A DNA stretch of 64,000 nucleotides from a virus: IMG/VR virus record IMGVR_UViG_3300020000_000011, positions 32,596-96,595 of that record; one strand, written 5' to 3'. The notes under the pieces were generated by a model that worked only from the letters and a program-made list of their open reading frames with translations, was not told the origin of the DNA and did not search any database. Position 1 is the stretch's first letter; each line of letters opens with the position of its first letter. Both the position numbers and the translations under genes were made by a program. Of the stretch, positions 16,274-37,268 are shown in pieces.

Positions 16274-16728
16274 GCGACACCCCGCCAGTCGTCGGCCAAG
16301 AACCGTGGGGCGACGACCTCAACGCCTACCTCGCTGCGCTGGAAGCCCGCATCGCCGCCGTCGAGTCTCGGCCCGAGTACGTGTACAGCAGCTACTCGTG
16401 GCAATACTCCAGCGCCGCGCCGCCACCGACCGGCAGCCAGGTGCGGTTCAACAACGCCTCGCTGCCCGCGGCGACGATCATGGTCGCCCGGCTGATCGAC
16501 AACGACGGCGGTGACCGCACCGCCCTGTTCCGTGCTCTCGACGTCGACTCGCACATCCGCATCAACGACTGGGACGACGCCGACACCGCCCACCGGTTCA
16601 GCGTGACCGGCCCGGTGAGCATCGACGCCACCGATGTCACCATCCCCGTCGTGTGGATCTCGGGCGCCGGGACCATCCCGAACGCCAAGGTCAACGTCAG
16701 CTTCCTCGTCGCTCTGGAGGTGTTCTGA
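16270..16728 (+). CDS. virion-associated (neck fibre-like) protein
   Basis: N-terminal PVVGQEPWGDDLNAYL; coupled to the adaptor gene. Confidence 0.55.
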   Translation: MSDTPPVVGQEPWGDDLNAYLAALEARIAAVESRPEYVYSSYSWQYSSAAPPPTGSQVRFNNASLPAATIMVARLIDNDGGDRTALFRALDVDSHIRINDWDDADTAHRFSVTGPVSIDATDVTIPVVWISGAGTIPNAKVNVSFLVALEVF

Positions 16729-17624
16729 TGCCTGTTGCCAAGACGCAACCGGTCTATCCGCCCGATCCCGGCAAGGCGCTGGAAGCCGACTGGGGGATCG
16801 CCGCGTCCGAACACGTCATCCAACGGTTCGCCGACATCGCCGACCGCAACACGAAGTGGACGACACCACCGACCGGCGCGGTGTGCATCACCCTGGCCCC
16901 GTCGCTGACGTCGTGGATCTACGACGGCTCCCAGTGGATCCCGCTCGGCGGCATCCTGATCGGCGAGATCAAGATGTGGCCCGGGGTGGCGACACCGATC
17001 AACTGGTTCCCGTGCGACGGGCGAGCGTTGTCACGCACCCAGTACGCCGCGCTGTTCGCTGCGATCGGCACCGTGTGGGGACCCGGTGACGGGTCGACGT
17101 TCAACATCCCCGACTTCCGCGGCCGGGGACCGATCGGCACCGGCACCGGCACCGGCCTCACCGACCGGCCGTTGGCATCCAAGATCGGTGCCGAAACCGT
17201 CGCCCTCGGAGCGACCGAGATCCCGTCGCACTCGCACACGATCAACCACGACCACGGCTCGGCGGGCACCGGCCCCGGTAGCGCCCACGCCCACACCGGT
17301 TACACCGGCGGACAGTCGCAGAACCACGTCCACGAAACCGTGCTCGGCGTGTCGTACAACTACGTCATCCAACAAGTCGGTGGCCCGTCGGCGATCCAGT
17401 TGCAACCCGGCTCGGGTGCGACGGTCACCAGTGGCAACACGACGGCCTACGCGGCGTCGGACCACACCCACAACGTCACGACATACGGCGAAGCGTCGCA
17501 CACCCACCAGTTCGACATGCCACCGTTCGGTGGCTCCAGCGGCAACACCGGCTCGGGCGCGGCGCACAACAACATGCAACCCTCGGTCGCGGTCGGGTTC
17601 ATCATCTTCGCCGGGGCCGGATGA
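16728..17624 (+). CDS. tail collar-domain fibre protein
   Basis: IGEIKMW...WFPCDG..LSRTQYAALFAAIGT.WG.GDG.TFNIPDFRGR; HxH repeats; HNNMQPS. Confidence 0.9.
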   Translation: MPVAKTQPVYPPDPGKALEADWGIAASEHVIQRFADIADRNTKWTTPPTGAVCITLAPSLTSWIYDGSQWIPLGGILIGEIKMWPGVATPINWFPCDGRALSRTQYAALFAAIGTVWGPGDGSTFNIPDFRGRGPIGTGTGTGLTDRPLASKIGAETVALGATEIPSHSHTINHDHGSAGTGPGSAHAHTGYTGGQSQNHVHETVLGVSYNYVIQQVGGPSAIQLQPGSGATVTSGNTTAYAASDHTHNVTTYGEASHTHQFDMPPFGGSSGNTGSGAAHNNMQPSVAVGFIIFAGAG

Positions 17625-21253: not shown

Positions 21254-21293
21254 GGTTGTGGCACCTACCGTACACGGTGCTATACTTCAGACC

Positions 21294-22826
21294 ATGACCG
21301 AGACACAGACTCCCCCGCCCGCCTGCGAGAAGTGCGGCGATACCGGCACCATCCCACCCTTCATGGACGCCTGCACCTGCGGCGCGATGCCCACCAGCTA
21401 CGCACCCGAGTTCCCGGCACCCAGCGTTGTCGAGGCCGGAGCCGCGATGGACGCCTGGGACGCCGAGCACCCCGAGGTCCGCCCCATGATCCCTGGCACG
21501 ACGATCCCGACGCCCGGCTTCCCCGCCCACCCGGCCACCGGCCAGGTTCACCACCACGACAACGGCAGCGCCTACATCTTCACCGGCGCCACCTGGAACG
21601 TGATCCCGTCCGGCTTCCCGCTCGACCCGAAGGTCGGCGAGATCTCGTGGAACATGGGCAAGGCGTACGCCTGGGACGGCTCGACGTGGCGCCAGTTCGA
21701 CACCGAGGCCCTGACCTACGAGCAGTTCCACGCCCGCTACGGCCCCGACGCCGTGCTGCCCGAGGCCGAGGTCGAGCGCGAAGCCGACGACGCTGCGCTG
21801 TTCGCCCGCCGTGCTGCCGAGATGGAAGCCGAAGAGAACACGGCGACATGGGGCGACATCGACGGCGGCACCCCCGAGTCCTCGTCGACCTGGTCCGGTG
21901 GCGCAACGTGGGGTGCGCCCGCAGCCGACGACAAGGTCACCGCTGCCGGACCCGAGATCGAGTGGGCCGACGTCCACGGTGTCGCCGAGGAAACCGACGG
22001 CGAGTACGTGACGACCACCGCCACCATCGCCGAAACCGTCGCAGCCGTCGTCGCCGCTCACCCACCGACCGGTGTGAAGCTGGCCTCGGCTCCGCAAGGT
22101 GCGCTGCTGGCCCGCCTGATCGCCGAACGCGACCCGGCCAACATCCTCGTCCAAGCCGCCAAGAGCGAATGCACCGGCCCGCCGATGACCGCCAAGCGGG
22201 CCTCGCAACTGATCGACGCCCTCGTCAAGCTGCCCTCCACGAAGCCGCCGGTCCGACCGAACAAGTACCCGGGCGCGTGCGTCAAGTGCAGCGGCGAAGT
22301 TGCCGCCGGGGCCGGACGCATCGAGAAGGACTCCAGCACCGGCCGCTGGAAGACCTACCACCTCACCGGTAGCGACTGCATCACCGACGCCGAGAAGGCC
22401 AAGCTGGAGATCGACCGAGTCGACGAGCCGGGCCTGTACAGCTACATCACCGGCGACATCTACCGAGTTCGTCACGCCCGCGGTTCGAAGCGGCTGTACG
22501 GCGAGAAGGTCGTCACCTACGAACGCCACAACCCCGACGGGACCTCCTACACCGAAGTCCGGTTCGTCTACAACGGCAACGCGATGCGGTTTCTCCGCAA
22601 GGTCGACAAGCTGACGTGGGCCGAGGCCCGCGACTTCGGCAAGGCGTACGGCGCCTGCGTGGCATGCGGCCGGACCCTCAACGATCCCCGCTCCCTCGTC
22701 CAGTCGTACGGTCCGACGTGCGCCAAGAAATACCACTGGCCGACCGTCACGCTGAAGCAGGCCGAGGCGATCATCGCCGGGACCGTCACCTGGGAAGAGG
22801 TCACCGGGGCGCTGACCGTCCTGTAG
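21294..22826 (+). CDS. multidomain Zn-binding protein with C-terminal DUF6011-like domain
   Basis: CEKC, RPNKYPGACVKC, YGACVACGRTLNDPRS...YGPTCAKK; leaderless TATACT. Confidence 0.7.
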   Translation: MTETQTPPPACEKCGDTGTIPPFMDACTCGAMPTSYAPEFPAPSVVEAGAAMDAWDAEHPEVRPMIPGTTIPTPGFPAHPATGQVHHHDNGSAYIFTGATWNVIPSGFPLDPKVGEISWNMGKAYAWDGSTWRQFDTEALTYEQFHARYGPDAVLPEAEVEREADDAALFARRAAEMEAEENTATWGDIDGGTPESSSTWSGGATWGAPAADDKVTAAGPEIEWADVHGVAEETDGEYVTTTATIAETVAAVVAAHPPTGVKLASAPQGALLARLIAERDPANILVQAAKSECTGPPMTAKRASQLIDALVKLPSTKPPVRPNKYPGACVKCSGEVAAGAGRIEKDSSTGRWKTYHLTGSDCITDAEKAKLEIDRVDEPGLYSYITGDIYRVRHARGSKRLYGEKVVTYERHNPDGTSYTEVRFVYNGNAMRFLRKVDKLTWAEARDFGKAYGACVACGRTLNDPRSLVQSYGPTCAKKYHWPTVTLKQAEAIIAGTVTWEEVTGALTVL

Positions 22827-22867: not shown

Positions 22868-23353
22868 GTGAGCAACGTTCCCGCTGTATCGACGGTCTGG
22901 GCCGGGTCCACGGACCCCGCTCCAGCCCCGCAACCGAGCGCGATGGCACGCTCGGTGGCACCACAAGCCCAGCAGACCGTCCAGGTGAGCCTGCAAGCCG
23001 CCTCGCAGACGATCGTGTTCTCTCAGCCCACCGAGGTCGACCTGGTCGTCTACAGGGGCGACACGGGCCGGTTCCGTGTCTCGGTGTCGAACCCCGACGG
23101 ATCCCCGCTCGATGTGTCGGCCGCGACGTGGGACTGCGACATCCGCACCAGCGAGGACGCCGAGCCGCCGTTGGCGTCGCTCAACGTCTACCCCGTCGCG
23201 GGTGAAACCGACACCATCGAGGTCCAACTCAACTCGATCACGTCGAGAACGTTGACCGGCGGCGTGTGGGATCTGGAGATGACCCTCGGCGGCGAAGTGC
23301 AGACTCTCCTGAAAGGCAGAGTCATCGTCCAGAAGGACGTGTCGAGGACGTGA
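22868..23353 (+). CDS. baseplate/fibre adaptor (BppU-like Ig fold)
   Basis: DLVVYRGDT.RF...PLDVS...GVWDLEM...TLLKGRVIV..DV. Confidence 0.65.
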   Translation: MSNVPAVSTVWAGSTDPAPAPQPSAMARSVAPQAQQTVQVSLQAASQTIVFSQPTEVDLVVYRGDTGRFRVSVSNPDGSPLDVSAATWDCDIRTSEDAEPPLASLNVYPVAGETDTIEVQLNSITSRTLTGGVWDLEMTLGGEVQTLLKGRVIVQKDVSRT

Positions 23354-25200
23354 GCGACGTCGACCCGTGCATGACCGTTGACATCGGTGTCACCGCCGGG
23401 CCGACACCGGAGATCGCTGCTGTTGCGCGCCCCGCTGTCGGCGGGGTCATCGTCTCGACGATCGCCGCGCAACCAGTCGCCGCTGTCGTCGGTGGACGCA
23501 CCTCGACCCTCACCGCCATCCGCCCGGCCGTTCCCCAAGTCGGCGGCACGACCCGCCTCACCGCAGGCGTCACCGCGCCGACACCGTCAGTCGGCCACGT
23601 CGGCCTGATCGGCACCCCCGGCCCGCCAGGACCGCCAGGCCCCGAAGGCCCCGAAGGCCCGGCCGGTCCGCCAGGGTCCGGCGTCGCAATCATCGGCTCG
23701 ATCGAAGAAACCGATCCGCCGCCCGTCGACCCGTCGACCGGTGACATGTGGGTCCTCGGTGACCCTGTCCCGTCGTGGGCGCCACCATCGGCGACCGGTC
23801 CGGCGCAACCAGGCGACGGGATCGTGTGGGACGGCGACGAGTGGATCAACACCGGCCAGATCCAAGGCCCGTCAGGTCCGCCAGGCGAGTCGGGGCTGCT
23901 CCCGCAGTTCCACATCGACGGTGCCACAAGCTGGTTCACGGCCACCGAACCGGGGATGTACTCGACCGACAAGATCGTCCAGCCGACGGTCTTCGCTCCG
24001 CTGTACATCTACCCGAGCTACCTCGGATGGTGGGACCCGTACTACGCGAACCCTCCCGACTGGGGCGTCGTCAACGTCGCCGGTGGGCCGGGGACCGCAC
24101 CGAACTCCGACTACACGTTGGGGATCAACACCTTGCGTGGCCTCGGGTCGAAGCTGCTCGGCTACGTCGACACGAATTACGGGGCCGTGCTGCTGACGAC
24201 CGTGAAGGCCGACATCGACCTGTGGTTCTCGCTGTACAACGTCGACGGGATCTTCTTCGACCGGGTACCGACCGGGGCCTCGGCTCCCGAGATCACGTAC
24301 ATGGCCGACGCCGCGGCCTACGCGAAAGCGAAGCAGGCCGGGTGGAAGGTGGCGTTCAACCACGGCGACTATCCGATCGTCTCCGACTACGCCACGGTCG
24401 CCGACTTCTCGATCGTCTTCGAGAACACGTACACCGTGTACACGACGTTCGCTATACCAAGCTATGCGACATACGTGCCGGGGTTCCCGGCGTCGCAGTG
24501 GGTGCATCTCGTGCACGCCTGCCCCGACGAAACGAGCATGCGCGACGCCGCCGCTCGATGCACCGCCTTCGACGTCGCCAACTTCTACGCGACCGCCGAC
24601 GCCAACTTCGCCGAGATCCCGCCGTACTACTCGGCAGAGTTCGATCTCGCGACGGGGCAACAGGCGGCGCCGGATGCGCGCTGGTCGTCCGGCACGCTGA
24701 CCGTGTTCCAAGGTCTGAGCGACGACCTGATGCAGATGTGGATGGGTGACAACACGAACACCTGGTTCCGTGTCTACACCGCAGAGTTCAACGCGTGGTC
24801 GGCATGGACGACATCGGTGCGCCTCCCCTCCGAGGCCGGGCAGACGTTGGTGTCCGTCGACGACGGCTTCGGAGGGTTCACGTTCTACCCGGGGCCGTAC
24901 GTGTCCGGCGACGACGCGAACGAGGTGTTCATCGGACCCGACGACCCGGGCACCGACGTCGGATTCGAACTGTGGTACGACGTCGACGACGAGGGCACCG
25001 GCGCCGGACTCAGCTACGTCCACCACCAGACCCTGTTGACGACCGTGTGGACGATCGTTCACAACCTCGGCTGGTTCCCGAACGTGCTCGTGATCGACAG
25101 TGCCGGGGCCAACGTCGAAGGCGACATCACCCAGGTCGACCACAACTCGATGCGGATCCAGTTCAGCGCCTCTTTCACCGGGACCGCCTACCTCTCGTAA
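23350..25200 (+). CDS. fibre protein with collagen repeats and spherulin-4 (GH135)-like domain
   Basis: GPP repeats; PLYIYP...VVNVAGGPG...LLGYVDTNYG...YNVDGIFFD...FNHG...FEN; C-terminal WTIVHNLG domain. Confidence 0.75.
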   Translation: MSDVDPCMTVDIGVTAGPTPEIAAVARPAVGGVIVSTIAAQPVAAVVGGRTSTLTAIRPAVPQVGGTTRLTAGVTAPTPSVGHVGLIGTPGPPGPPGPEGPEGPAGPPGSGVAIIGSIEETDPPPVDPSTGDMWVLGDPVPSWAPPSATGPAQPGDGIVWDGDEWINTGQIQGPSGPPGESGLLPQFHIDGATSWFTATEPGMYSTDKIVQPTVFAPLYIYPSYLGWWDPYYANPPDWGVVNVAGGPGTAPNSDYTLGINTLRGLGSKLLGYVDTNYGAVLLTTVKADIDLWFSLYNVDGIFFDRVPTGASAPEITYMADAAAYAKAKQAGWKVAFNHGDYPIVSDYATVADFSIVFENTYTVYTTFAIPSYATYVPGFPASQWVHLVHACPDETSMRDAAARCTAFDVANFYATADANFAEIPPYYSAEFDLATGQQAAPDARWSSGTLTVFQGLSDDLMQMWMGDNTNTWFRVYTAEFNAWSAWTTSVRLPSEAGQTLVSVDDGFGGFTFYPGPYVSGDDANEVFIGPDDPGTDVGFELWYDVDDEGTGAGLSYVHHQTLLTTVWTIVHNLGWFPNVLVIDSAGANVEGDITQVDHNSMRIQFSASFTGTAYLS

Positions 25201-25212
25201 AGGGGCACAGCA

Positions 25213-27030
25213 ATGGCACGCAACTTCCTCACCGCGATCAACCTCAACAAGAACGAGTTGCAGAACGCCGCGGTCCAGAACCTTGGTACGGCACCGCTGA
25301 CGCCGGTCAAGGGCCAGTTGTACTTCAACTCGACCGGTGGTGATAACACCCTATACTGGTGGGACGGTACGTCGTGGATCCCGGCCAAAGCGACGTCGAC
25401 GATCGCAATGGGACCAGTCGCAGCGGAGCAGACCTTCGGCAGCGCCTCGGCTGACGGTGTCGCTTCGACGGCGTCACGGTCCGATCACAAGCACGGCAAC
25501 CCGGCACACGACAACGCAGCCCACTCGGCGATCCCGCTGTACGCGTTGCAGAACCCGTTCGGCCCGTCGACGTCCGAGAAGGTGTTCGGCGCCGACGCCG
25601 CGAACGGTGTGTCGAACTCGGCGGCACGAGCCGATCATACCCACGGCAACCCGTACCACGACGGCCCCGCGCACGCCTCCGTCTCGCTCTCGGCGCTCGC
25701 CGCGCCGACCGCCGATCTCAGCATGGCCGGGTTCAAGATCACCAGCCTCGGCACACCGACCGCAGGGACCGACGCAGCCAACAAGGCGTACGTCGACAAC
25801 CTCGCCGCGGGTCTGATCTGGAAAGCGCCGGTGCGGTTGGCGAGTGCCCCTGCGACCAACTACGGGACACTGGCGGGGCTGATCGCAGTCGATGGCGTGA
25901 CTCCGGTTGCTGGTGACCGCATCCTGCTGAAGAGCCAATCGACGCCAGCGAACAACGGCATCTACATCGCAGCCGTCGGTGCATGGACTCGGGCGACTGA
26001 CGCCGACACCAGCGCCGAGTTGGTCGACGCCGCAGTGTTCGTCTCCGAAGGCACCGTCAACGCCGACACCGCATGGGTGCAGACAGCCAACGCACCGATC
26101 ACCATCGGCACGACAACGATCACTTGGGTCCAGTTCGTTGGCGGCGGCGCGGTCACCGCCGGTGCCGGTATGACCCAAGTGGGCAACCAACTCGACGTTG
26201 TTGCCGCCAACGGCTCGATCGTCGTCGGCCCCGACGACATCCAAGTCGGCTACCCCGGCACTGGTGGCGCCAACGGTTCGGCAGTCACCGCGGCGCGCTC
26301 CGACCACAACCACGACGCCACCTACGTCAACGTCACCGGCGACACGATGTCCGACACGCTGAACATCACCAAGAACCTCGGCATCGGCCTCGCCGCCAAC
26401 GCTTCGGCAGTTCAGGCAGCGACCTTCGTCGCCCTCAACGGAGGGCTGGACGGCAACAGCGTCAACCTTCACGGTTCCGGCGCGGCGTTGACGGTCGGCG
26501 GCTCGTTCTCGTCGGTGGACTTCTCCAACCTCGCCGACCAGGTGACGCTCCCGGCGTTCACCCCGGTCCAAAACAACCACGCGGCAACGAAGGCGTACGT
26601 CGATTCTCGCGACGGGGTGATCTCGACCGACGGCGACAAGGGCGACATCACCGTTGGCGGCACCGGCACCACGATGTCGATCGACGCTGCTGCGGTGACC
26701 AACGCCAAGTTGGCGAACATGGCTTCGCTGACGGTCAAGGGCAACAACGTTTCGGCGGGTCCTCCCCTTGATCTGTCGATGGCCCAACTCTCCAACATGC
26801 TCGCCGCGACGTTGGTCAAGAAGTACATCACCCAAGCCGGTGGGTCGACCACTCATGTCATCAACCACAACATGGGCGACAAGGCCGTGATGGTGCAGGT
26901 GTACTCCAACGTCGCACCGTACGACGAGATCGAATGCGACGTCGAACACACCGACATCAACAACGTCACGTTGCGCTTCGCTCCAGTGGCCCCGGCAGCC
27001 AACTCCCTCACGGTGATCGTCCACTACTGA
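25213..27030 (+). CDS. tail fibre protein
   Basis: SRSDHKH/ARADHTH repeats, [29 protein letters not shown]; C-terminal HNMG domain. Confidence 0.8.
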
Positions 27031-27842
27031 TGGCCAAACAGTTCCTCGTCCCGATCGTCCTTCCCGCGGACCCGACGGCGCCGTTGGAGGCTGCCACGAA
27101 GCAGTACGTCGACGCGCTCGCTGGTGGCGCATCGAGCGACGAGGTGTTCATCGGTCCGGCCGATCCGCGGCCGGGGATCCCGAACATCGAGTTGTGGTAC
27201 GACACTGACGCGCCGACGACGCCGACGACTCCGAACCCGTTGGATGAGGTGTTCATCGGACCGACGGATCCGCACACGCTGTATCCGTCGGTCGAACTCT
27301 GGTACGACGAATCCGACAACTCCAGCGGTGTCGTGTCGACCCCGTACGCCGGGACACCGGCACCGATCGCCGCGACCGGTTCGCCGGGTGTGTCGCCGTT
27401 GTGGGCGCGTGGCGATCACATCCACGCCCGGAACTCGGAGATCTTCCACACCGAGTTCACCGCTGACGTCACGATCACCGCGCTGGCGGTCGGATCCGCC
27501 CAGACGGTCGTCAACCCTGGCACCTTCAGCTACGACGGGTCGCCGATCATGTTGGAGTTCTTCGCCCAGTTGCTCCCCCCGACCGGTGCCAACCTCCAGA
27601 TCTTGCTCAACCTGTTCGACGGCGCCACCGATCTCGGCTACTGGATGCAGTGCATGAACGTCGCTGCGGCTTCGATGGTCGTCCCTGTCCATGCGATGCG
27701 TCGGCTCACCCCGAGCGTCGGTTCACACAACTACCACGTGCGTTCCTTCGTCAGCGCCAGTGGCACTGGCACCGTTCGCGGCGGTCTTGGCAACGCGGCT
27801 GCCGCGTTCGCGCCGGGGTTCATGAGAGCGACGAGGGTCTGA
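27030..27842 (+). CDS. fibre branching protein with two EVFIGP..ELWYD motifs
   Basis: AATKQYVD; duplicated motif; ARGDHIH. Confidence 0.7.
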   Translation: MAKQFLVPIVLPADPTAPLEAATKQYVDALAGGASSDEVFIGPADPRPGIPNIELWYDTDAPTTPTTPNPLDEVFIGPTDPHTLYPSVELWYDESDNSSGVVSTPYAGTPAPIAATGSPGVSPLWARGDHIHARNSEIFHTEFTADVTITALAVGSAQTVVNPGTFSYDGSPIMLEFFAQLLPPTGANLQILLNLFDGATDLGYWMQCMNVAAASMVVPVHAMRRLTPSVGSHNYHVRSFVSASGTGTVRGGLGNAAAAFAPGFMRATRV

Positions 27843-29179
27843 TGGGGACACTCAAAGCGTGGGTCGGCGGCGCCTGGGTGCCGATCGGGGGCGGCTCCGG
27901 CAGCGGTGGTGGCGCGGAAGAAGTGTGGGTCGGTCCGGCCGATCCGGGTACCGTTGGCCCGTTCGAATTGTGGTACGACACCGACGCCTCCGCGCTCCCA
28001 CCAGCGGGTACCGGGTTGCCTCCTGGTGGTGCGGCCGGGACGGTGCTTCGGAAGAAATCGGCGACGGACTTCAACACTGAATGGTTCGCCCCCCCGCTCG
28101 CCGGTCGCAACCTGCTCGACAACGGGCAGATGGCCGTCAACCAGCGACAGAACGCCAACGGTGTCATCTCGCGTATCAGTGACCGCTGGTCGATCCCTAA
28201 CAACGGGGTCGGCGTGACCACCCTCAACTACGGCACGCTCGCCAACTTCGGTGGGTTCTCGTCCGTCGCCTCGCGCCCTCGGCCAGCGAACGTCCAGTTC
28301 GTGCAGATCTCCACCGCCGAAGCGGCGGGTTCGCTCGCCGCTGCCGACTACTGCCAATGGATCCAGACCGTCGAAGGGTTGAACCTCCAGCACCTCAACT
28401 GGGGCAGTGCCGACGCGCAGCCGGTGACGTACAGCTTCGATATTTACTCGACGATCGCCAGCACGTACGTCGTCGAGTTGTACCGCGCCGAAACCACGGC
28501 ACGAGTGATCTCGGCGCTGCTGCCCGTCCCGGCCGGGTGGTCGACACAGTCGGTGACCTTCCCCGGTGACACGGCCGCTGGGATCACCAACGACAACCTG
28601 GGCCGGTTGCAGGTCACCGTGTGGTTGGCAGCGGGATCGAACTACACGTCCGGCACGTTGCAGACGGCGTGGGGCAACGTCGTCCAGACCAACCGTGCCG
28701 TGGGCCTGTCGAACGCCATCCAGGCGACGGTCAACCAGGTCTTCGCTCTGACGAACTGCCAGTTCGAAGTCGGGTCGGCACCGACGCCGTACGAGGTGCT
28801 CCGCTACGACGTCGATCTGGCTCGCTGCCAGCGGTACGCGTTCTACCCGGGCAAGGACATCCCGACTGCCAACTATGTGGTGCTGGGTGGTGGCATGGCG
28901 ACGGCGACAACGTCGGTGGCGTCACTGTTCTGGCTGCCGGTGGCGATGCGAACGGCGCCCACCTGGGACCTGAACGGCACCGCAGCAACGATCTACGGGT
29001 TGCACGATCGCATCGGCACCGCCGGGGCGGTGTCGGCCATCGCACAGGACGTGGTGTCAACGCCGACGGTCGCCGCGCTCCAGTCGACGTGCAACGCCGT
29101 GCTCACTGTCGGTCGCTACTACCAGATGCTCAGGAACTCGGGCCAGGCCGGTTGCGGTGGATGGACGGCGGACATCTGA
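27842..29179 (+). CDS. receptor-binding fibre paralog 1 (GRNL.DNGQM family)
   Basis: RNLLDNGQMAVNQR..DRW...CQFEVG..PTPYE...CQRY. Confidence 0.75.
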   Translation: MGTLKAWVGGAWVPIGGGSGSGGGAEEVWVGPADPGTVGPFELWYDTDASALPPAGTGLPPGGAAGTVLRKKSATDFNTEWFAPPLAGRNLLDNGQMAVNQRQNANGVISRISDRWSIPNNGVGVTTLNYGTLANFGGFSSVASRPRPANVQFVQISTAEAAGSLAAADYCQWIQTVEGLNLQHLNWGSADAQPVTYSFDIYSTIASTYVVELYRAETTARVISALLPVPAGWSTQSVTFPGDTAAGITNDNLGRLQVTVWLAAGSNYTSGTLQTAWGNVVQTNRAVGLSNAIQATVNQVFALTNCQFEVGSAPTPYEVLRYDVDLARCQRYAFYPGKDIPTANYVVLGGGMATATTSVASLFWLPVAMRTAPTWDLNGTAATIYGLHDRIGTAGAVSAIAQDVVSTPTVAALQSTCNAVLTVGRYYQMLRNSGQAGCGGWTADI

Positions 29180-30372
29180 TGGGCGTCCTACGTGTTCTCG
29201 TCAACGGTGTGTGGGTCGACATCGGTGGCGCGTCCGACGAAGTCGTCGTCGGACCGGACGACCCGATCCTTCTCACCCCGACCGCCGAATTGTGGTACGA
29301 CACCGACGCCACCAGCGTCGCTTCGGCACCGCTGTACTCCGGTCGGAACCTTGTCGACAACGGGCAGATGGCCGTGAGGCAACGCCTGGCGACGTCGGTG
29401 GCGATGGGCGCCGCCACGGTGCTCGCCGACCGCTGGTACGTGATGAATAACGGCCTCGGCGCGTCCACTCTGACCCACGGCACGTTGGCCGGGTTCGGTC
29501 AGTTTCCGCCCGCCGGTCGACCACGGCCGGGCAACATGCAGTACATCCAGATGACCACCGCCGAGGCTGCCGGTGCGCTCGCCGCGGGCGATCAACTGCT
29601 GTTCCAACACGCCATCGAAGGGCTGTACCTCCAGCACTTGAACTGGGGCACGGCTGATGCCAAGCCGTTGACGATCAGCTTCGATATCTACTCGTCGATC
29701 GCCACGACCTACGCGGTCGAGTTGATTCGCACCGAGCCAGCGGCGCGTTCGAACTGTCGACTGCTGCCGGTCCCTGCCGGGTTCTCCACCCAGACCTTCA
29801 CCATCTCGGGTGACGCCGCCGGGACGGCGGTCACCAACGACAACGCGGCCCGGTTGTACTTCATCGTCTGGATCGGGGCCGGGTCGACCGCAACGTCGGG
29901 CGTGATGCAGAGCGGATGGGCACCGGCCGTGTCGGCGAACCGTGCTGTCGGGATCTCCAACGCCTTCGCGGCGACGGTCGGCAACGTCGTGGGGATCACC
30001 AACGTGCAGATCGAGGCCGGGTCGCAAGCCACGCCGTACGAGGTGCGCGGCTACGACCAAGAATTGATGAAGTGCATGCGCTACTTCCGTCAGACCGAGA
30101 GGTCATCCAACCTCCACGGTGAAGGCGGCTGGTACGGCTACAGCCCATCAGCGATGACCTTCATGCACAACATCCCCTTCCCAGTGCCAATGCGAACTAC
30201 ACCGTCAAGAACCTTCCGGGGTACCTTCGCCAACAACGGGCAGGTCGCCTCGCATGATGTCCTCGTCAACTCGACGTCGTACACGATCTCGATCGCAACG
30301 GTCGCTGCGGCGGGCAACTGGGCGATCTACAGCAACAACAACGGCTACCTAGAGTTCTCGGCGGAAATCTGA
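29179..30372 (+). CDS. receptor-binding fibre paralog 2
   Basis: Paralog of 27842..29179 with a different C-terminal tip. Confidence 0.75.
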   Translation: MGVLRVLVNGVWVDIGGASDEVVVGPDDPILLTPTAELWYDTDATSVASAPLYSGRNLVDNGQMAVRQRLATSVAMGAATVLADRWYVMNNGLGASTLTHGTLAGFGQFPPAGRPRPGNMQYIQMTTAEAAGALAAGDQLLFQHAIEGLYLQHLNWGTADAKPLTISFDIYSSIATTYAVELIRTEPAARSNCRLLPVPAGFSTQTFTISGDAAGTAVTNDNAARLYFIVWIGAGSTATSGVMQSGWAPAVSANRAVGISNAFAATVGNVVGITNVQIEAGSQATPYEVRGYDQELMKCMRYFRQTERSSNLHGEGGWYGYSPSAMTFMHNIPFPVPMRTTPSRTFRGTFANNGQVASHDVLVNSTSYTISIATVAAAGNWAIYSNNNGYLEFSAEI

Positions 30373-31058
30373 TGGGCGTCCTCCGTGTTCGTGCCGGTGG
30401 CACTTGGGTCGACGTCGGTGGTGGCAGCGACCCGATCTGGGTCGACCCTTCGGCACCGACCGATCCGAGCTACGAGTTGTGGTACGACACCGACGCCAAC
30501 GCGTCGCTCGCCACGAGTGGCGGGTTGGATGGGTCGAAACCGGCAGCGGCTCCGGCGCTCGCCGGGATGCACTACTTCGCGACCGACACGGGTCGCGACT
30601 GGTTGTGTGACGGGACCGGATGGATTGTCATGTCCGAACCCGACCAGCCGTGGGTGGTGACAACGACGAACGTGTCGTTCGGTGGTGGCGGCGGGTCGGT
30701 GAACTCGACGTTCCATCGCAGCGACGGCTACTGCGACGCGCTGCTCATCATGGGCCTCGGCTCGTCGACGTCGGGGAGCATCGGTACCGGCCCGACGTTC
30801 ACGCTGCCGCGAGCGTCGCACGCCAACGAGGTGCTGAACGTGATCGGCCAGTTCTCGTTCTACGACGCGACCGGCCCGGTGTTCTCGCTCGACCCGTTGT
30901 TGGTCACTCCCACCTACTTCGAACCACGGTTCCTTGCCACGGTGGGCAGCGGTGCACCGGCGCTCGGGCAGATCGGGGCGACGTACCCGGCAGCGATCGG
31001 TGTCAACGACTCGTTCTTCGCCAGGCTCCGCTACCGCATGGCAACGAGGTACCTCTGA
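30372..31058 (+). CDS. minor fibre/receptor-binding protein
   Basis: MGVLRV..W N-terminus, ELWYDTDA, YFATDT.RDWLCDGTGWI.MSEP. Confidence 0.7.
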   Translation: MGVLRVRAGGTWVDVGGGSDPIWVDPSAPTDPSYELWYDTDANASLATSGGLDGSKPAAAPALAGMHYFATDTGRDWLCDGTGWIVMSEPDQPWVVTTTNVSFGGGGGSVNSTFHRSDGYCDALLIMGLGSSTSGSIGTGPTFTLPRASHANEVLNVIGQFSFYDATGPVFSLDPLLVTPTYFEPRFLATVGSGAPALGQIGATYPAAIGVNDSFFARLRYRMATRYL

Positions 31059-32092
31059 TGGGTGTGCTACGCGTCAAGGTCGCCGGGCAGTGGATCGACG
31101 TCGGCACGTCGACGGTGGCGCTCGCCGCCGGGCGCAACCTGCTCGACAACGGCCAGATGGCCGTCAAGCAACGAGCCACGACCGGGTTCGCTCTCTCCAG
31201 TGCGCTGCAATTCCTGTCCGACCGGTGGGGGCTGTACAACAACGGCGTCGGTGTCATCAACGTCGGCGTCGCCGCGTTCGGTGCCGGTGCCCTCGCCGCT
31301 GGTCGGCCGCGTCCCGGCAACCAGCAATACTTCACGGTCGCCACCGGTGAGGCTGCCGGTGCGCTCGCCGTCGGCGATTACTGGCAGATCGCCCAAGGCA
31401 TCGAGGGCCAGTTCCTTCAGCACTTGAACTGGGGCACACCGGGAGCGCAATCGTTGACCGTCAGTTTCGACATCTACTCGTCGGTCGCCGGGAACTACGT
31501 CGTTGAGTTGTACCGGCAAGAGACGGCGCAGCGTTCGATCTCGGCGCTCGTCACTGTCCCGGCGGGGTGGTCGACGCAATCGGTGACCTTCCCCGGCGAC
31601 ACGGCCGCTGGGATCACCAACGACAACGCATCGCGGTTGGTCCTCGTCCTCGCGCTCACGGGCGGATCGACGTACACGTCGGGCGTGTTGCAATCCTCGT
31701 GGGGGGCGGTGGTCAACGCCAACCGTTGGCCCGGGATGACGAACACCATCGCTGCCACCGCGGGCAACCAGATCGTCGTGACCAACGTCCAGATGGAAAT
31801 CGGCACCCAGGCGACCCCGTACGAAGTGCGCGACTACGTCCAAGAGTTACAGAAGTGCAGGCGCTATTTCGAGACGACGGGGTACGTGTTGAACGCCACG
31901 GTGCCTCCGTATATCCCAGGATACTGGACGGCGCAGAAACGTGCGATCCCGACGGTCACCCACGCCCCGCAAGCTGGCACCGGTGCAGTGTTCAACATCG
32001 TCGCGGGCTACGGCGAAGGGTCGATGTTCTACCAGAACTCCAACCACTCGGTCGCCGCGCTCACCCTCGTCACCGGAAACTCGGAGATCTGA
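31058..32092 (+). CDS. receptor-binding fibre paralog 3
   Basis: Paralog of 27842 and 29179 genes. Confidence 0.75.
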   Translation: MGVLRVKVAGQWIDVGTSTVALAAGRNLLDNGQMAVKQRATTGFALSSALQFLSDRWGLYNNGVGVINVGVAAFGAGALAAGRPRPGNQQYFTVATGEAAGALAVGDYWQIAQGIEGQFLQHLNWGTPGAQSLTVSFDIYSSVAGNYVVELYRQETAQRSISALVTVPAGWSTQSVTFPGDTAAGITNDNASRLVLVLALTGGSTYTSGVLQSSWGAVVNANRWPGMTNTIAATAGNQIVVTNVQMEIGTQATPYEVRDYVQELQKCRRYFETTGYVLNATVPPYIPGYWTAQKRAIPTVTHAPQAGTGAVFNIVAGYGEGSMFYQNSNHSVAALTLVTGNSEI

Positions 32093-32322
32093 TGCCCGGC
32101 GCACTGTTCGCGTGGGTCGGTGGGGCGTGGGTCCCGATCGGTGGGCAAGGCGCGTTCCCTCCCGTACCACCGGCGCAAGTTGGGCCGGTCGCTCCGGCGT
32201 CGCCGACATCGGGGATGTTGTGGTGGGACACTGCCGACACATCGGTCGACAACGGTGTCGACGTCGACGGCGGCAGCCCCGCTTCGTCGAGCACCGACAC
32301 GATCGACTGTGGGCCACCATGA
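32092..32322 (+). CDS. small fibre adaptor protein
   Basis: AWVGGAWVP N-terminus, GMLWWDT, C-terminal VDGG/IDCG. Confidence 0.65.
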   Translation: MPGALFAWVGGAWVPIGGQGAFPPVPPAQVGPVAPASPTSGMLWWDTADTSVDNGVDVDGGSPASSSTDTIDCGPP

Positions 32323-32870
32323 CCCGGTTGCAGATGCGGCGCGGCACCAGCGCGCAGTGGGCGTCGGCGAACCCGATCCTCGCCGCCGGTGAACCCGGTC
32401 TGGACACGACGACCGGTCTGATGAAGGTCGGTGACGGGCGCACCGTGTGGGCGGCGCTCGTGGCCGAGTGGGCACCGGCGTAGATGATCGCCAGCACACC
32501 ACGAGGCGTGACCGCTGCCGGGATCGGATCGGCGATCAACGGCATCGCCATCAACGCGTCGAACACCTACCTGTGCAGTCTGTTGACGTTCACGTTCGAC
32601 ATCACCCGCCGTTATCGGGTCTGGTACGTGATCCGTGCGATCACCGCCGGGTTCATCAACTTCGGTCTGTATAGCCCCACGCTGGGCGGCTCGATCGGTG
32701 GCGACCAGTGGATGTCCGCCGACCGCAGTTACGGCGGCGCGACGTTCACGTGGTTGATCAGCGGAGTCGGCGGTGCCATCCAGTTCGCGCCTCGCGTCAG
32801 CACCAACTACCTGACCGGGGTCACGGTCTACGGTCGGGATTTCTACGTCGAAGATGTTGGAGCGGCCTGA
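32319..32870 (+). pseudogene. Mtd_N-type fibre protein interrupted by in-frame TAG at 32481-32483 (or split/readthrough gene)
   Basis: Both halves align collinearly with paralog 33502..34194; TAG sits at the position of Ser (TCG). Confidence 0.65.
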
Positions 32871-33502
32871 TGCCTGACAGCGCGATTGCCTCACTGACAG
32901 CACTGACCGTGTTGGCCTCGGTCGACGAGTTCGTGATCGTCGACAAGTCCGACGCGACGATGGCAGCGTCGGGCACCACGAAGCGGATGACGGTGGCGGC
33001 GTTGCTCGCCGACCCGCTGTTCCTCAACGCCGGGTTGGAAGCTGCGAAACCGGCAGCCGTCGCGGCGTTGGCCGGGCGTCGTTACTTCGCCACTGACACG
33101 TTGCGCGACTGGCTGTGCGACGGCACCGGCTGGATCATCATGTCGGAGCCGACTATCACAACCCATGCACCCAACCTGGTGGCAAACGCTGGAACGCTCA
33201 CCACGGTCGGGGCGCAATCGTTCCGCTACAGCCGCAGTTGTGGCTGGGTTAGATGGGGAGCATCGTTCGCAATCACGACGAACGGCACCGGCGCAGGGTC
33301 GCTGGGTTTCACGCTGCCTGTGGCGACCGCTTCACGCGTCATCGGTACGGGACGAGAGGACAACCTCAACGGCCACATGCTCAACTGCACCGGGTCTGGG
33401 ACGTTGGGGGGCATCGGCAAGTACGACAACACGTACCCAGGAGCCAATGGCTGCTTGCTCAATGTCGGTGGCTCATACGAGATGGCGTCGAGGTATACCT
33501 GA
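32870..33502 (+). CDS. minor fibre/receptor-binding protein
   Basis: MPDSAIASL N-terminus; shares YFATDT.RDWLCDGTGWI.MSEP with 30372..31058. Confidence 0.7.
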   Translation: MPDSAIASLTALTVLASVDEFVIVDKSDATMAASGTTKRMTVAALLADPLFLNAGLEAAKPAAVAALAGRRYFATDTLRDWLCDGTGWIIMSEPTITTHAPNLVANAGTLTTVGAQSFRYSRSCGWVRWGASFAITTNGTGAGSLGFTLPVATASRVIGTGREDNLNGHMLNCTGSGTLGGIGKYDNTYPGANGCLLNVGGSYEMASRYT

Positions 33503-34194
33503 TGGCCGACGGGCTGCTTCGCGAGGACGGCGGGAAACTGCTGACCGAGGACGGCGGTTCGATCCTGCTCGCACCCGTCGTGGTGATCCCTCCCCCGCAG
33601 CACGTTGCTCGGACGGTCCCGCGCAGGATCCCGAAACTCCAGTTCCGTCGCGGCAACACCGCCGAGTGGGCGACAGCCAACCCGGTCCTCGCCCAAGGCG
33701 AACCCGGGGTTGATCTCGATACCGGCGACTTCAAGATCGGCGACGGCGCCACCGCTTGGAACTCGCTGCCGTTGCCGTACGCGCCACTGTCGTTCCAGAC
33801 GAGCGCACCACGCGGGGTCGTCGCCACCGGTGTCGCATTCGACCCGGTGACCATCGCTACGGCGGGCGCGCAGGTCGATCTCACCGGCTCGATCCGCTAC
33901 GAGTTCGACCCGACCCGGCTGTACCGGATCAACTACACCATCCGAGCAATGTCTGGCGCGGCGGCTGGCAAGGTGGCGGGCACGTTGCAGTTCTGGCTGT
34001 GGAACATGATCACCGGCCAGAACGGTGTCGATCAGATCGTCGCCACCGACACCGCTTACTACAGTGGCGCTGCCTACACGTTCCTGTTCACCGCCAACGG
34101 GCTGATGGAACTTCGGATCCGCACCAGCACGTACGGCAACGTGATGACGATCTACGGACGCGACTACTACATCGAAGACATCGGTGCCCTATGA
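33502..34194 (+). CDS. Mtd_N-domain fibre protein
   Basis: LLREDGGKLLTEDGG; RRGNTAEWATANPVLAQGEPG.D.DTG.FKIGDG.TAWNSL. Confidence 0.75.
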   Translation: MADGLLREDGGKLLTEDGGSILLAPVVVIPPPQHVARTVPRRIPKLQFRRGNTAEWATANPVLAQGEPGVDLDTGDFKIGDGATAWNSLPLPYAPLSFQTSAPRGVVATGVAFDPVTIATAGAQVDLTGSIRYEFDPTRLYRINYTIRAMSGAAAGKVAGTLQFWLWNMITGQNGVDQIVATDTAYYSGAAYTFLFTANGLMELRIRTSTYGNVMTIYGRDYYIEDIGAL

Positions 34195-34706
34195 GCAAGA
34201 TCCGACTCCGCCGCGGCACCACCACCGAGTGGACGTTGGCGAACCCTGTGCTCGCCGCGGGTGAACCAGGCGTGGACACCACAACCGGCGTGTTGAAGAT
34301 CGGAGACGGGTCGACGGCATGGCTGTCACTTCCCACCCCGTACGCCGCTGGATCGTCTCTGGTGCCTCTCCAGGCGGCAATCATCGGTACTCCGTGGGCC
34401 GCGCCGCCGTTCACCACCGGGTGGCAGACGTACGGTGGCGGCTACCAGAACTGCGGGTACCGCAAGATCGGCGATCTCGTGTACCTCCGGGGGCTGCTCC
34501 AAGCGACCACCGGTGTCACCTCGACGGCGTGGACGTTCCCCGCCGGGTTCCGGCCACCGCTCACCGCGTTGACGGGAATGATGACGTCGGCCGGTGCCTG
34601 GCGTCGCGTCGACATCACCACGGCCGGTGCTTTCAACGTCACCAGCCCGGCGGTCGGCGAGTGGTTCGCTCTCGAAACCGTTCCTCCGTTCTCGGTGACG
34701 CCATGA
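34191..34706 (+). CDS. Mtd_N-domain receptor-binding protein
   Basis: RRGTT.EW..ANPVLAAGEPG...KIGDG; YRKIGDLVYLRGL...P.GFRP head. Confidence 0.75.
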   Translation: MSKIRLRRGTTTEWTLANPVLAAGEPGVDTTTGVLKIGDGSTAWLSLPTPYAAGSSLVPLQAAIIGTPWAAPPFTTGWQTYGGGYQNCGYRKIGDLVYLRGLLQATTGVTSTAWTFPAGFRPPLTALTGMMTSAGAWRRVDITTAGAFNVTSPAVGEWFALETVPPFSVTP

Positions 34707-35158
34707 GCCGACTGAAGATCTACGACATGGCCACCGGCACGTGGCAGTACGCCGGGACGGTCGACCCTGCGGCGCTCGCTGCCGACCCGGCGTTCCGCAA
34801 CGCGCTGGCCAGCGACCCGGTGCTGATCGCTGCCATCTCGGCGTCGCTCGCTTCGGTCGTCCGACCCTCGACCGTCGCCGCGGTGACACCGGTGCTCGGC
34901 GACGAGAACTGTCTGATCACTCTGTCGAACGCGTTGGCGATCACGATCACGTTGCCGTCGAACGCGACGGTGCCGTTCAAGGTCAACTCCGAGATCAGCT
35001 ACCTGTGGCTCGGCGTCGGGCAACCATCGTTCGTTGCCGGTGCCGGAGCGACCGTGAACGCGACACCAGGGTTGAAGCTGCGCGCCCAGTACAGCGCAGC
35101 GACAGCGAAGAAGATCGCCACCGATGCGTGGGTCGTGATGGGAGACGTCGGTGCGTAG
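34703..35158 (+). CDS. fibre adaptor protein
   Basis: MSRLKIYD..TGTWQY N-terminus; C-terminal domain near-identical to 36768..37268. Confidence 0.7.
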   Translation: MSRLKIYDMATGTWQYAGTVDPAALAADPAFRNALASDPVLIAAISASLASVVRPSTVAAVTPVLGDENCLITLSNALAITITLPSNATVPFKVNSEISYLWLGVGQPSFVAGAGATVNATPGLKLRAQYSAATAKKIATDAWVVMGDVGA

Positions 35159-36755
35159 CGCAGTCGGAGTTGTCGCCTCAGCAGTCGTGATCACGCTGTA
35201 CCCACCGACGTCGGTGACAGCGGTGTACGTGCCTGCCGGAACGAAGGTCACCGTCGCGTGGGTGCCACCGGATCTGACCGGCGCCGACACGTGGGTGGTC
35301 CGCCGCTTCGACGGCACAGTCGTCGCTACGGTGCCTGTGGGCACGCTGACGGTCGACGACGGCTCGCCGGTGCCCGGAACAGGCACGTACAGCGTCGAGG
35401 GCGTCCAGGGCGCCTACACAGGCTCCAAGGCGTTCTCGGCGTCGATGACGATCAGCTTGCAACCGGCCACCGCGACGGCGACCGTGTCGGGCGAAACGAT
35501 CATCGTCAACTGGACCGCCGGACCGCAGGGCGACCCTGATGCGTGGTACATCTACAACGCCACCGAAGGCGGCTGGCTGGCGACCGGCCTCGCCGGATCA
35601 GCGCGGACGTTCACGACACCGGCGATGACACCGGGCCGGGTGTTCACGATCGGCGTGTGGCCGTACCTGTCCGGCGCGCAGGCCACCGGCCGCAACACCA
35701 ACACCGCAGGGATCCCACCACGAGTCACCCGCCCGCAAACCTGGGGACCGGTCGGACTCAACACGTTGCAGTACACGTTCTGGGGACCGGCAGCCGGACT
35801 CGCCGACAACTACGACATCGACTACTACATCTCGTCGTGGGTGCCGTGGATCTACGGCACGACCTCGGGTGGCCCACACAACCTCGGCACCGGATCCCCG
35901 GCGTACGTGCGCTCCCGAACGAACTCGCAGGGCATGTCGAGTGGGTGGACACAGTCCGGGCCTGCGACCCCGACCACCGACGTCACCGGCCCACCATCGA
36001 CCGCCATCACCATCGGCGCATGGGACGTCAACCAAGCCGCGTACAACGTGTCGTGGCCCGCCCACTACGACTCGTCCGGCAACGGCGTCACCAGGTTCCA
36101 GTACAACATCAACAGTGGTGGCTGGCAGGAATCCGGCGTCGCCTACCCGGCCGGTCCGGCCTACTCGGGTCTGGTCGGCGGCTTCGGTCGCGGTGTCACC
36201 GTCAGCTTCCGACTGCGAATGACCGACGCTCTCGGCAACACCACGTACGGTCCGGCGACGGGAACGGTGTGGACCCGACCGCTCGGCGGGTTCATCGCCT
36301 ACGCCAACAACAGCTACACGTGGGGCAACGTCTCGGGCTTCGGTTGGATGGGCAACGACCGCTGCGTCGGCGGCAGCTACGGCGGCAACGAGAACTACGG
36401 GTTCTGGTGGTACGGCGCGAACATCACCAACATCTGCAAGACGTTCACGCCGGACCGCATGTTCTTCTGGTCGCAGAAGGTGTCCGGCTTGTCGTCCGCC
36501 GGTACCGCCTACCTCGCCGTGCACAACCAGGCCAACTACGACGGCACCGTCCCCGGCGTCGGTGGGATCTTCCACGCGCCCAGCTTGGCGGTCGTGGCCG
36601 ACAACACCCAGTTCGGTGCAGGCTGGTACCCGGGGTTCGCCAACGGCCAGAACGCGGGCGCCTGCGTCGTCGGCAACGGCCAACCGTTCAAGGCGCTGTA
36701 CGGCAAGAACGAAGCGTCCGATTCGGGCGCCATCACGATCTACTTCGATGCGTAA
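35151..36755 (+). CDS. fibronectin type III-repeat minor tail protein
   Basis: Repeated V.W.......Y.V patterns; aromatic-rich C-terminal domain. Confidence 0.7.
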
Positions 36756-36767
36756 AGGGGGAACCAG

Positions 36768-37268
36768 ATGGGTGTCTTGAAGGTCAACATCCCAGGCACC
36801 GGTTGGGTCCCGACGACCGGCCCTCCCGGCCCGACTGGCGCCCCTGGCGCTCCCGGCGCCCCTGGTGCGGTCGGCCCTCCTGGCGCTCCCGGCACCGATG
36901 GTGCCCCCGGTCCGCAAGGTCCACCAGGCGTCCAAGGCCCCGTCGGTCCGGCACCCCCGGCGTTCGCCGTCAAGAACTTCACGTCCAACGCCGTCGCTCC
37001 CGTGCTGGCCGACGAGAACTGCCTGTGCACCTTGTCGAACGCCGCGGCGATCACGATCACCATGCCCAGTGATGCGACCGCACCGTTCCAGATCAACGCC
37101 GAGGTCAGCTACCTGTGGCTCGGTGTCGGGCAACCGACGTTCCTCGCCGGACCGGCAGCGGTGGTCAACGCCACGCCAGGGCTGAAGATGCGCGCCCGGT
37201 ACTCGGCGGCGACGGCGAAGAAGATCGCTGCCAACACCTGGGTGATCATCGGGGACCTGAGTGCCTGA
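36768..37268 (+). CDS. collagen-like fibre adaptor protein
   Basis: GXY repeats; C-terminal domain paralogous to 34703..35158. Confidence 0.75.

Follow-up and report, generated by a model that had tools for sequence, protein, structure and literature searches.

Split connector modules in a fibre gene run of an uncultured soil phage: a proposed receptor-binding fibre assembled in gene order

This report concerns a run of fibre-like genes (positions 22868-37268) within a window of 64,000 nucleotides, which corresponds to bases 32596-96595 of the linear 96.6-kb IMG/VR virus record IMGVR_UViG_3300020000_000011. Unless another locus is named, coordinates given below are positions in this window, and the genes of the run are numbered in order from g1 to g16, with one additional short gene designated g9b. 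Our comparative analysis suggests that the run probably encodes a multi-protein receptor-binding fibre, the subunits of which would be joined end to side, in gene order, by two reusable connector pairs: (i) an AB half carried by one protein, which would pair with a CD half at the start of the next gene's product, and (ii) a C-terminal HN domain, which would pair with the FL N-terminus of the next gene's product.

Connector half-modules in the fibre gene run

The AB module (the acceptor of the initial annotation of this DNA) is approximately 23 amino acids (aa) long and consists of two strands with a PxDP loop between them; the second strand ends in ELWYD. The CD module (the donor of the same annotation) is a beta-hairpin of about 17 aa, placed straight after the initiator methionine. 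When all six frames of the 96.6-kb contig were scanned for the motifs, acceptors and hairpins turned up in this run only.

With profile hidden Markov models (HMMs) made from database relatives (background below 6 bits), AB was detected at 28-44 bits in g2, g4 (two copies), g5, g6 and g7, and CD at 24-29 bits in g5-g9, just after the start codon. Six of the seven acceptors originally counted correspond to these strong AB sites, but the seventh, in g9, is degenerate (1 bit). Among the seven donor starts, those of g5-g9 are strong; the two remaining ones, variants in g14 and g16, score weakly (6.7 and 9.5 bits), yet are backed by database relatives (P0123 and P0069) that begin in the same way. 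The statement that no hairpin follows the acceptors held for hairpins of the CD type, but in g5 the AB has a hairpin of a second type after it on the same polypeptide.

The module-bearing genes and their modules are as follows.

23350..25200, plus strand: g2, long primary fibre with a collagen-like stretch, a Spherulin4-like domain, AB and a C-terminal HN
about 24919-24990, plus strand: AB of g2 (AB HMM, 29.9 bits)
about 24982-25197, plus strand: HN of g2 (HN HMM match at the C-terminus)
25213..27030, plus strand: g3, FL-type N-terminus, contiguous ABCD-like motif, HxH-type motifs, decoration-like centre and HN (about 26818-27027)
27030..27842, plus strand: g4, candidate adaptor or branch protein with FL (27030-27116) and a 170-aa C-terminal domain
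about 27138-27206 and 27243-27311, plus strand: the two AB modules of g4 (AB HMM, 42.6 and 37.9 bits)
27842..29179, plus strand: g5, CD 27842-27892 (28.9 bits), AB 27923-27979 (27.8 bits), the second hairpin type, tip B1
29179..30372, plus strand: g6, CD 29179-29229 (26.3 bits), AB 29242-29301 (43.6 bits), tip B1
30372..31058, plus strand: g7, CD 30372-30422 (27.3 bits), AB 30435-30488 (32.2 bits), tip B2
31058..32092, plus strand: g8, CD 31058-31108 (26.9 bits) joined straight to a B1 tip, no AB
32092..32322, plus strand: g9, mini-protein of 76 aa with CD (24.3 bits), the degenerate AB (LWWDT, about 32170-32235) and a short acidic tail
34703..35158, plus strand: g14, variant CD (MSRLK type, 34703-34756) and C-terminal domain B4
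36768..37268, plus strand: g16, variant CD (36768-36818), a collagen triple-helix stretch and domain B4

The complete run comprises 17 plus-strand open reading frames (ORFs) lying back to back, rather than the approximately 15 fibre genes first described; the count includes a 54-aa ORF (32319-32483) that had not been listed. The overlaps reported between most neighbours were found at 12 of the 16 junctions (eight TGATG and four ATGA or GTGA overlaps). Such stop-start overlaps fit coupled translation, and hence similar amounts of the neighbouring proteins.

When 1.8 billion cluster representatives were searched by phmmer with the N-terminal 55 residues of g6, 156 matched. In about half (approximately 75) of the best 150 of these, the module occurs once, at the very start of a protein of 100-500 aa, and the C-termini of these proteins differ greatly. 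Others, among them P0001, P0007, P0013 and P0015, carry 5-8 tandem copies per chain, with short links on both sides, and IMG/VR relatives have the same tandem arrangement in one chain.

Judged from these sequences, AB-CD is one repeat unit of about 45 aa with four predicted strands, of which AB and CD are the halves. Since this tandem unit exists within single chains, a join made by two chains is plausible. The initial annotation, in which AB and CD were read as the halves of a split motif, was right as to the halves of one unit, but its reference phase was half right: the unit runs in tandem in many single chains. The contiguous form of the motif that it had noted in g3 is present in the translation.

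Collagen may part CD from AB (P0090 and g16), and CD stands alone in g8; for these reasons we regard CD as an independent N-terminal element. A simple circular permutation within one chain was also considered, and is insufficient in view of this separation and of the 35 terminal proteins that carry CD without AB.

No Pfam family and no solved structure matches AB-CD by sequence, and searches of the PDB sequences with g4, g5, a tandem-array protein and the module profile gave no useful match. The AB and CD HMMs and the Pfam family Mtd_N (PF18454) do not cross-match.

Gene order and module content in related loci

Related loci were drawn from IMG/VR and JGI metagenomes and scanned with the AB, CD, FL and HN HMMs; 64 loci were left after removal of duplicates. 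The arrays follow one layout, i.e. a root with AB last, then zero to four CD-AB-tip proteins, then one CD-tip protein. Of 104 AB-last genes, 86 have a CD-start gene directly after them, as against only 3 of the 68 other module-bearing genes.

The same order is seen inside the runs of complete CD-start genes: AB is kept where another CD-start gene comes next (40/43) and is absent from the last gene of the run (35/39). There are seven exceptions (Fisher p = 4e-15, uncorrected for shared ancestry), at least two of which look like detection artefacts, namely a missed start codon (L039) and an AB variant missed by the model (L052). The run-ending proteins were checked for an AB-like motif, and none at all was found in them.

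This order rule spans 19 tip families, the largest of which has both AB states. In that family the AB state changes twice, if only strongly supported branches are counted, or nine times on the best tree; an independent-pairs test on the tip tree had too few well-supported pairs for significance. The roots are diverse (OB-fold spike-like N-termini, collagen shafts, FL proteins and others), and one of them, in L052, is a homologue of g2 with the same Spherulin4 domain, directly followed by CD-start genes.

Thirteen genes end exactly in AB, and in 12 of these cases a CD-start gene comes next, mostly after a spacer of 10-19 nucleotides and always with an ATG of its own. AB and CD are fused in one chain in L034, and a nearly identical hairpin starts a separate gene in L039. 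The covariation of donors and acceptors in relatives, which the initial annotation had proposed as a check, is thus borne out as a rule of gene order in the 64 loci, but not as a count: the 7:7 ratio offered as evidence is no general rule, and relatives carry spare AB modules without plugs.

As regards the second pair, HN is a C-terminal domain of about 65 aa and FL the N-terminal domain of the next gene's product. We could confirm in the translations that the HN C-termini of g2 and g3 are followed by genes starting with MA(R/K)xFL. In the related loci, an FL-type start comes after an HN-ending gene in 22 of 23 automatic calls; the lone miss (L091) is due to the start-codon call, and an earlier module table resolves the gene in question as FL-AB. 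A g3-like gene sits after an HN-ending gene in every relative that has one. The independence of the HN/FL cases is low, because most of them come from one conserved three-gene cassette.

FL-AB proteins of 53-58 aa, which stop right after AB, are encoded in several loci between HN-ending and CD-start genes. Similarly, in L020 and L014 a CD-HN protein of 87 aa has an AB gene before it and an FL-start gene after it. Proteins that, by their sequences, consist of two connector halves only are hard to explain except as adaptors. An alignment of g4 with the FL-AB proteins of nine relatives has 20 invariant columns, and the position of g4 may be held in relatives by an FL-AB protein of 53-55 aa that ends in AB.

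AB/CD and HN/FL therefore appear, from the module content of the 64 loci, to act as matched pairs, in keeping with the earlier proposal of docking through several orthogonal connectors, but the other pairs named there found no support. The link between the acidic tail of g9 and the Mtd_N proteins has no comparative backing, as no other locus has Mtd_N genes near the array. The same is true of the proposed link between g11 and g12 (genes starting at 32870 and 33502) and of the links involving g15.

In the 48 genes that have both an upstream and an own-chain AB, CD distances correlate with those of the upstream gene's AB at r = 0.38 and with those of the own-chain AB, which lies 10-20 residues from CD, at r = 0.20 (bootstrap difference 0.17, 95% interval 0.03-0.32). 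This covariation fits a contact of CD with the AB of the previous protein.

AlphaFold monomer models of two tandem-array proteins had mean predicted local distance difference test scores (pLDDT) of 66 and 72. In both models the first CD, with no AB before it, scored 47-55, and the CDs that come after an AB scored 73-89. This contrast is a faint sign of CD packing against the AB before it, but models are often poor at chain ends. The complex prediction for three copies of g4 residues 1-115 with three copies of g5 residues 1-50 gave 0.38, 0.05 and 0.19, compared with a mark of 0.32, and counts neither way. Foldseek searches with the tandem-array models gave nothing significant (best E-value 0.01, propeller-like lectins), and neither did VIA-align (best Z 3.4), where the trimerisation units of collagen XV and XVIII, with Z of about 3, are a lead only.

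Proposed assembly and alternative explanations

In the assembly that we propose, g2 (a collagen-like fibre with a glycosidase) would offer HN, g3 would dock on it by FL and present its own C-terminal HN, and g4 would dock on g3 by FL and offer two AB modules. Proteins g5, g6, g7 and g8 would then be added serially, each by its CD on the AB of the protein before, and g8, which lacks AB, would terminate this first chain. The mini-protein g9, a candidate extension piece, may take the second AB of g4 and so start a side chain, which g14 may continue; the places of g9, g14 and g16 are guesses.

The hairpins of this phage fall into two classes, g5/g9 (13/16 residues identical) and g6/g7/g8 (11/16), with 6-9/16 identities between the classes. 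The likeness of the g5 and g9 hairpins fits the use of both of the similar AB modules of g4 by these two proteins, and the double socket that the initial annotation saw in g4 is present as two strong AB sites. In L052 the last AB is of the LWWDT type and the next gene starts with an MSRLK hairpin, like the variants in g9 and g14; this is a single case and a lead only.

We infer that the AB and CD modules touch, that their contact rebuilds the repeat unit of the single-chain proteins, and the stoichiometry of the assembly, in which trimers are assumed because of the collagen stretches. Attachment to the tail is likely but not settled, and a position at the tail tip rather than elsewhere on the virion is a guess. 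The OB-fold N-terminus of the roots of L020 (7503-8402) and L044 (9695-10484), which is fused directly to AB modules and a tip, looks like that of baseplate spike proteins.

Several observations weigh against the proposed assembly. No gene of this phage ends in AB; instead, each AB module is internal, with a C-terminal domain of the same protein after it, so that a side-branch join is required. The adjacency rule fails for three of the seven CD-start genes (g9, g14 and g16), and some AB modules cannot be sockets, since relatives have AB for which there is no matching plug. In the main tip family the strong branches force only two independent changes and, because many of the loci are related, the raw p-values overstate their independence. 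The co-inheritance of an AB-tip-CD cassette could give the same covariation without contact. Finally, the array has the head-morphogenesis gene on one side and the small terminase and portal genes on the other, and is not adjacent to those of the tape measure and Dit, and g3 resembles a capsid decoration protein, so that part of the assembly might sit on the capsid; because of these two points, a location at the tail tip is not established.

The order rule also bears on the choice between a chain and a shared anchor. CD, with or without AB, might be a common N-terminal anchor to one site on the baseplate or an adaptor, each fibre being independent of the others. Many phages with several receptor-binding proteins (RBPs) work by common N-terminal anchoring to one site; moreover, the module is N-terminal in seven proteins of this phage and in the approximately 75 database representatives, and tandem duplication with tip swapping is evident (68-70% DNA identity among g5, g6 and g8). 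We nevertheless consider a shared anchor unlikely, since it would leave unexplained (i) the loss of AB in the last gene and its retention in inner genes, even within one tip family, (ii) the presence of AB in the gene before the first CD-start gene, across diverse roots, and (iii) the AB-ending genes and FL-AB mini-proteins.

It is less probable still that AB-CD is a shaft repeat at which cassette exchange has left the gene borders, in which case the order rule would be a by-product and attachment would use other surfaces. Recombination scars of this kind would agree with the true tandem repeat in single chains, with the conserved DNA that paralogues share at the module, and with AB in shaft proteins that have no plug nearby. 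However, the single-chain arrays (P0001, P0004, P0007, P0013 and P0015) end in AB before the body, whereas the terminal genes of split runs join CD straight to the body. The adaptors of 53-87 aa made of connector halves alone would then lack a role, and the split proteins would still have to assemble to give a working fibre.

Translational fusion, by which readthrough or frameshifting at stop-start junctions would put AB and CD in one chain, is highly improbable, for although an in-frame TAG lies directly between a terminal AB and the next CD in L012, and another between g9b and g10, the junction frames vary (-1 and -4 overlaps, gaps of 10-19 nucleotides), each downstream gene has its own ATG (several with a GGAG-like site upstream), and no shared slippery sequence was seen at the junctions.

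The anchor-branch system of Klebsiella and E. coli phages is the closest known analogue, nearest in principle, of the proposed serial docking by AB/CD and HN/FL. The branched RBP systems of KP32, K11, KP34, G7C, K1-5, the Menlow group, PhiK64-1 and RaK2 combine a T4 gp10-like branching domain with an N-terminal docking peptide (PMC6872550), and the docking of a peptide of the second RBP on the gp10-like domain of the first has been confirmed experimentally (PMC13352976). The likeness consists in RBPs encoded side by side, a short N-terminal element that docks (here as a proposal) on a primary protein, and truncated adaptor-like proteins; a short conserved N-terminal element of secondary RBPs is present here as the CD of seven genes.

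No sequence match to a T4 gp10-like domain was found for g2-g4 in Pfam, PHROG or PDB; profile-profile and fold comparison were not run. The present system differs from the anchor-branch one in that the socket (about 23 aa) and the plug would be halves of one beta repeat, most subunits carry both halves, so that the join could be repeated in an open-ended chain, there is a second connector pair along with mixed mini-adaptors, and the hosts are probably actinobacteria.

The long tail fibre of T4 consists of gp34, gp35, gp36 and gp37 joined in series. What it would have in common with the assembly proposed here is the serial, non-covalent joining of different trimeric fibre proteins encoded in order; however, it has four fixed proteins and dissimilar junctions, whereas here one junction type would be reused up to five times, with a tip on each link.

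In chaperone-usher pili, donor-strand complementation gives ordered polymers. The likeness is one of principle only, i.e. an N-terminal strand element is proposed to complete the beta unit of the previous subunit; here, in contrast, the fibres are collagen-linked and assumed to be trimers. No Ig-like pilin, chaperone or usher was found in the general family scans, which included no search aimed at such models. There is also a connection with Mtd of Bordetella phage BPP-1, as g12, g13 and g9b carry Mtd_N and the ABCD-like motif of g3 resembles the Mtd_N residue pattern; unlike AB/CD, Mtd_N is not split between genes.

We are evenly divided as to whether the combination of orthogonal, reusable split-domain connectors (AB with CD, HN with FL) and adaptors of 53-87 aa that would interconvert the types, with gene order as the order of assembly, constitutes a recursive docking grammar so far undescribed for any phage. 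If the proposal is correct, a chain could be lengthened, shortened or branched by the gain or loss of one cassette, which would explain how receptor specificities are gained and lost one cassette at a time. It would be a natural form of non-covalent "plug and play" protein joining, and the fibre architecture (root, links and terminator) would be readable from the sequence in a large group of uncultured soil phages. The compact connector (about 17 aa plus about 23 aa) might then be of use in host-range engineering or in protein joining generally. The anchor-branch principle, which is so far known chiefly from Klebsiella, E. coli and Salmonella phages, would extend to a different lineage, with a docking element that can be repeated.

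Source phage and other genes of the run

The G+C content of the record is approximately 65%. PHROG and Pfam scans of the window genes identified, among others, a capsid protease, a major tail protein and a head-tail adaptor. By the same scans, the large terminase (18090) and MuF-like head morphogenesis (20444) genes precede the fibre run, and those of the small terminase (37293), portal (37998), tape measure (40690) and Dit (44574) lie 3' of it. This order of modules over 18090-45593, with 14 kb of fibre genes between the MuF-like and small terminase genes, is unusual.

The portal protein is at most 37% identical to the portals of large phages of Actinomycetia, Arthrobacter, Microbacterium and Gordonia. 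Because of this low identity, we assign the phage, on the basis of its sequence, to distant, uncultured soil siphoviruses that resemble phages of actinobacteria. A nucleotide search with the array and a protein search with the N-terminal module gave no match among GenBank phages, and no cultured GenBank phage carries the module. No prophage copy of the module was confirmed in two scans of species-representative bacterial genomes, and the annotated neighbourhood in phage DSL-LC01, the nearest portal relative, is without a comparable array.

A Phage Tail Collar domain protein (PF07484, 7e-20) is encoded apart from the array at 16653-17624, between the head-tail adaptor and large terminase genes. 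Just upstream of the array (21258-22826) there is a gene for a 522-aa protein with a C-terminal DUF6011 (PF19474, 3e-10).

The other genes of the run are as follows.

22868..23353, plus strand: g1, 161 aa, head of the run, phrog_1084 (unknown function), GTGA overlap with g2, without a connector module
32319-32483, plus strand: g9b, 54 aa, Mtd_N only, ending in TAG
32484-32870, plus strand: g10, 128 aa, tip only, with an ATG in frame after the TAG of g9b
32870..33502, plus strand: g11, a different N-terminal anchor and tip B2; phrog_32881 match to the C-terminal part
33502-34194, plus strand: g12, Mtd_N-anchored fibre (Pfam 9.5e-16, 57.9 bits, cut-off 26.3)
34191-34706, plus strand: g13, Mtd_N-anchored fibre with a tip unlike that of g12 (Pfam 1.1e-18, 67.2 bits, cut-off 26.3)
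35151..36755, plus strand: g15, beta-rich protein of 534 aa that matches no Pfam or PHROG family

Of the three Mtd_N proteins announced in the initial annotation, g12 and g13 were recognized by Pfam, and g9b by its translation and our own motif pattern only. Taken together, g9b and g10 are collinear with g12, and the tip of g10 is 37% identical to that of g12. The TAG between these two ORFs (32319-32870) may have arisen by nonsense mutation, mark a natural split or serve as a readthrough site.

All-against-all BLAST revealed a mosaic, with B1 in g5, g6 and g8, B2 in g7 and g11 (36% identity over 187 aa between these two), and a third tip in g10 and g12. The body of g5, which matches phrog_4492 (tail fibre, 9e-30), is 45% identical to that of g6 and 57% to that of g8. 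The B1 body of g6 is about 30% identical to annotated tail fibre or carbohydrate-binding proteins of the unrelated phage HMO-2011, cyanophages and pelagiphages. The C-terminal domain B4 is common to g14 and g16 (69% identity), as had been noticed before, but the description of g15, which they flank, as an FN3 protein was not confirmed by Pfam. The collagen stretch of g16 (PF01391) scored 9.5e-09 and 35.3 bits, above the cut-off of 27.2.

In g2, Spherulin4 (PF12138) was found at residues 214-428 (23989-24633) with 2e-33 and 116 bits, above the gathering score, covering profile positions 2-233 of 239. By sequence, this Spherulin4/GH135-like glycosidase domain inside a collagen-like fibre is a candidate virion-borne polysaccharide depolymerase. 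The collagen of g2 scored 17.1 bits in Pfam, below the cut-off of 27.2; Gly-X-Y runs are visible in its translation.

The decoration-like centre of g3 matches phrog_2647 (head decoration, 7e-46) and, at residues 192-339 (25786-26229), the capsid decoration protein 9nx3_A of the PDB (1e-11). Motifs of the form (S/A)R(A/S)DHxHG repeat in g3 and g4 (e.g. 25480-25520 and 27395-27420), as well as in P0001; they are reminiscent of the HxH metal sites known from trimeric phage fibres, T4 gp37 among them.

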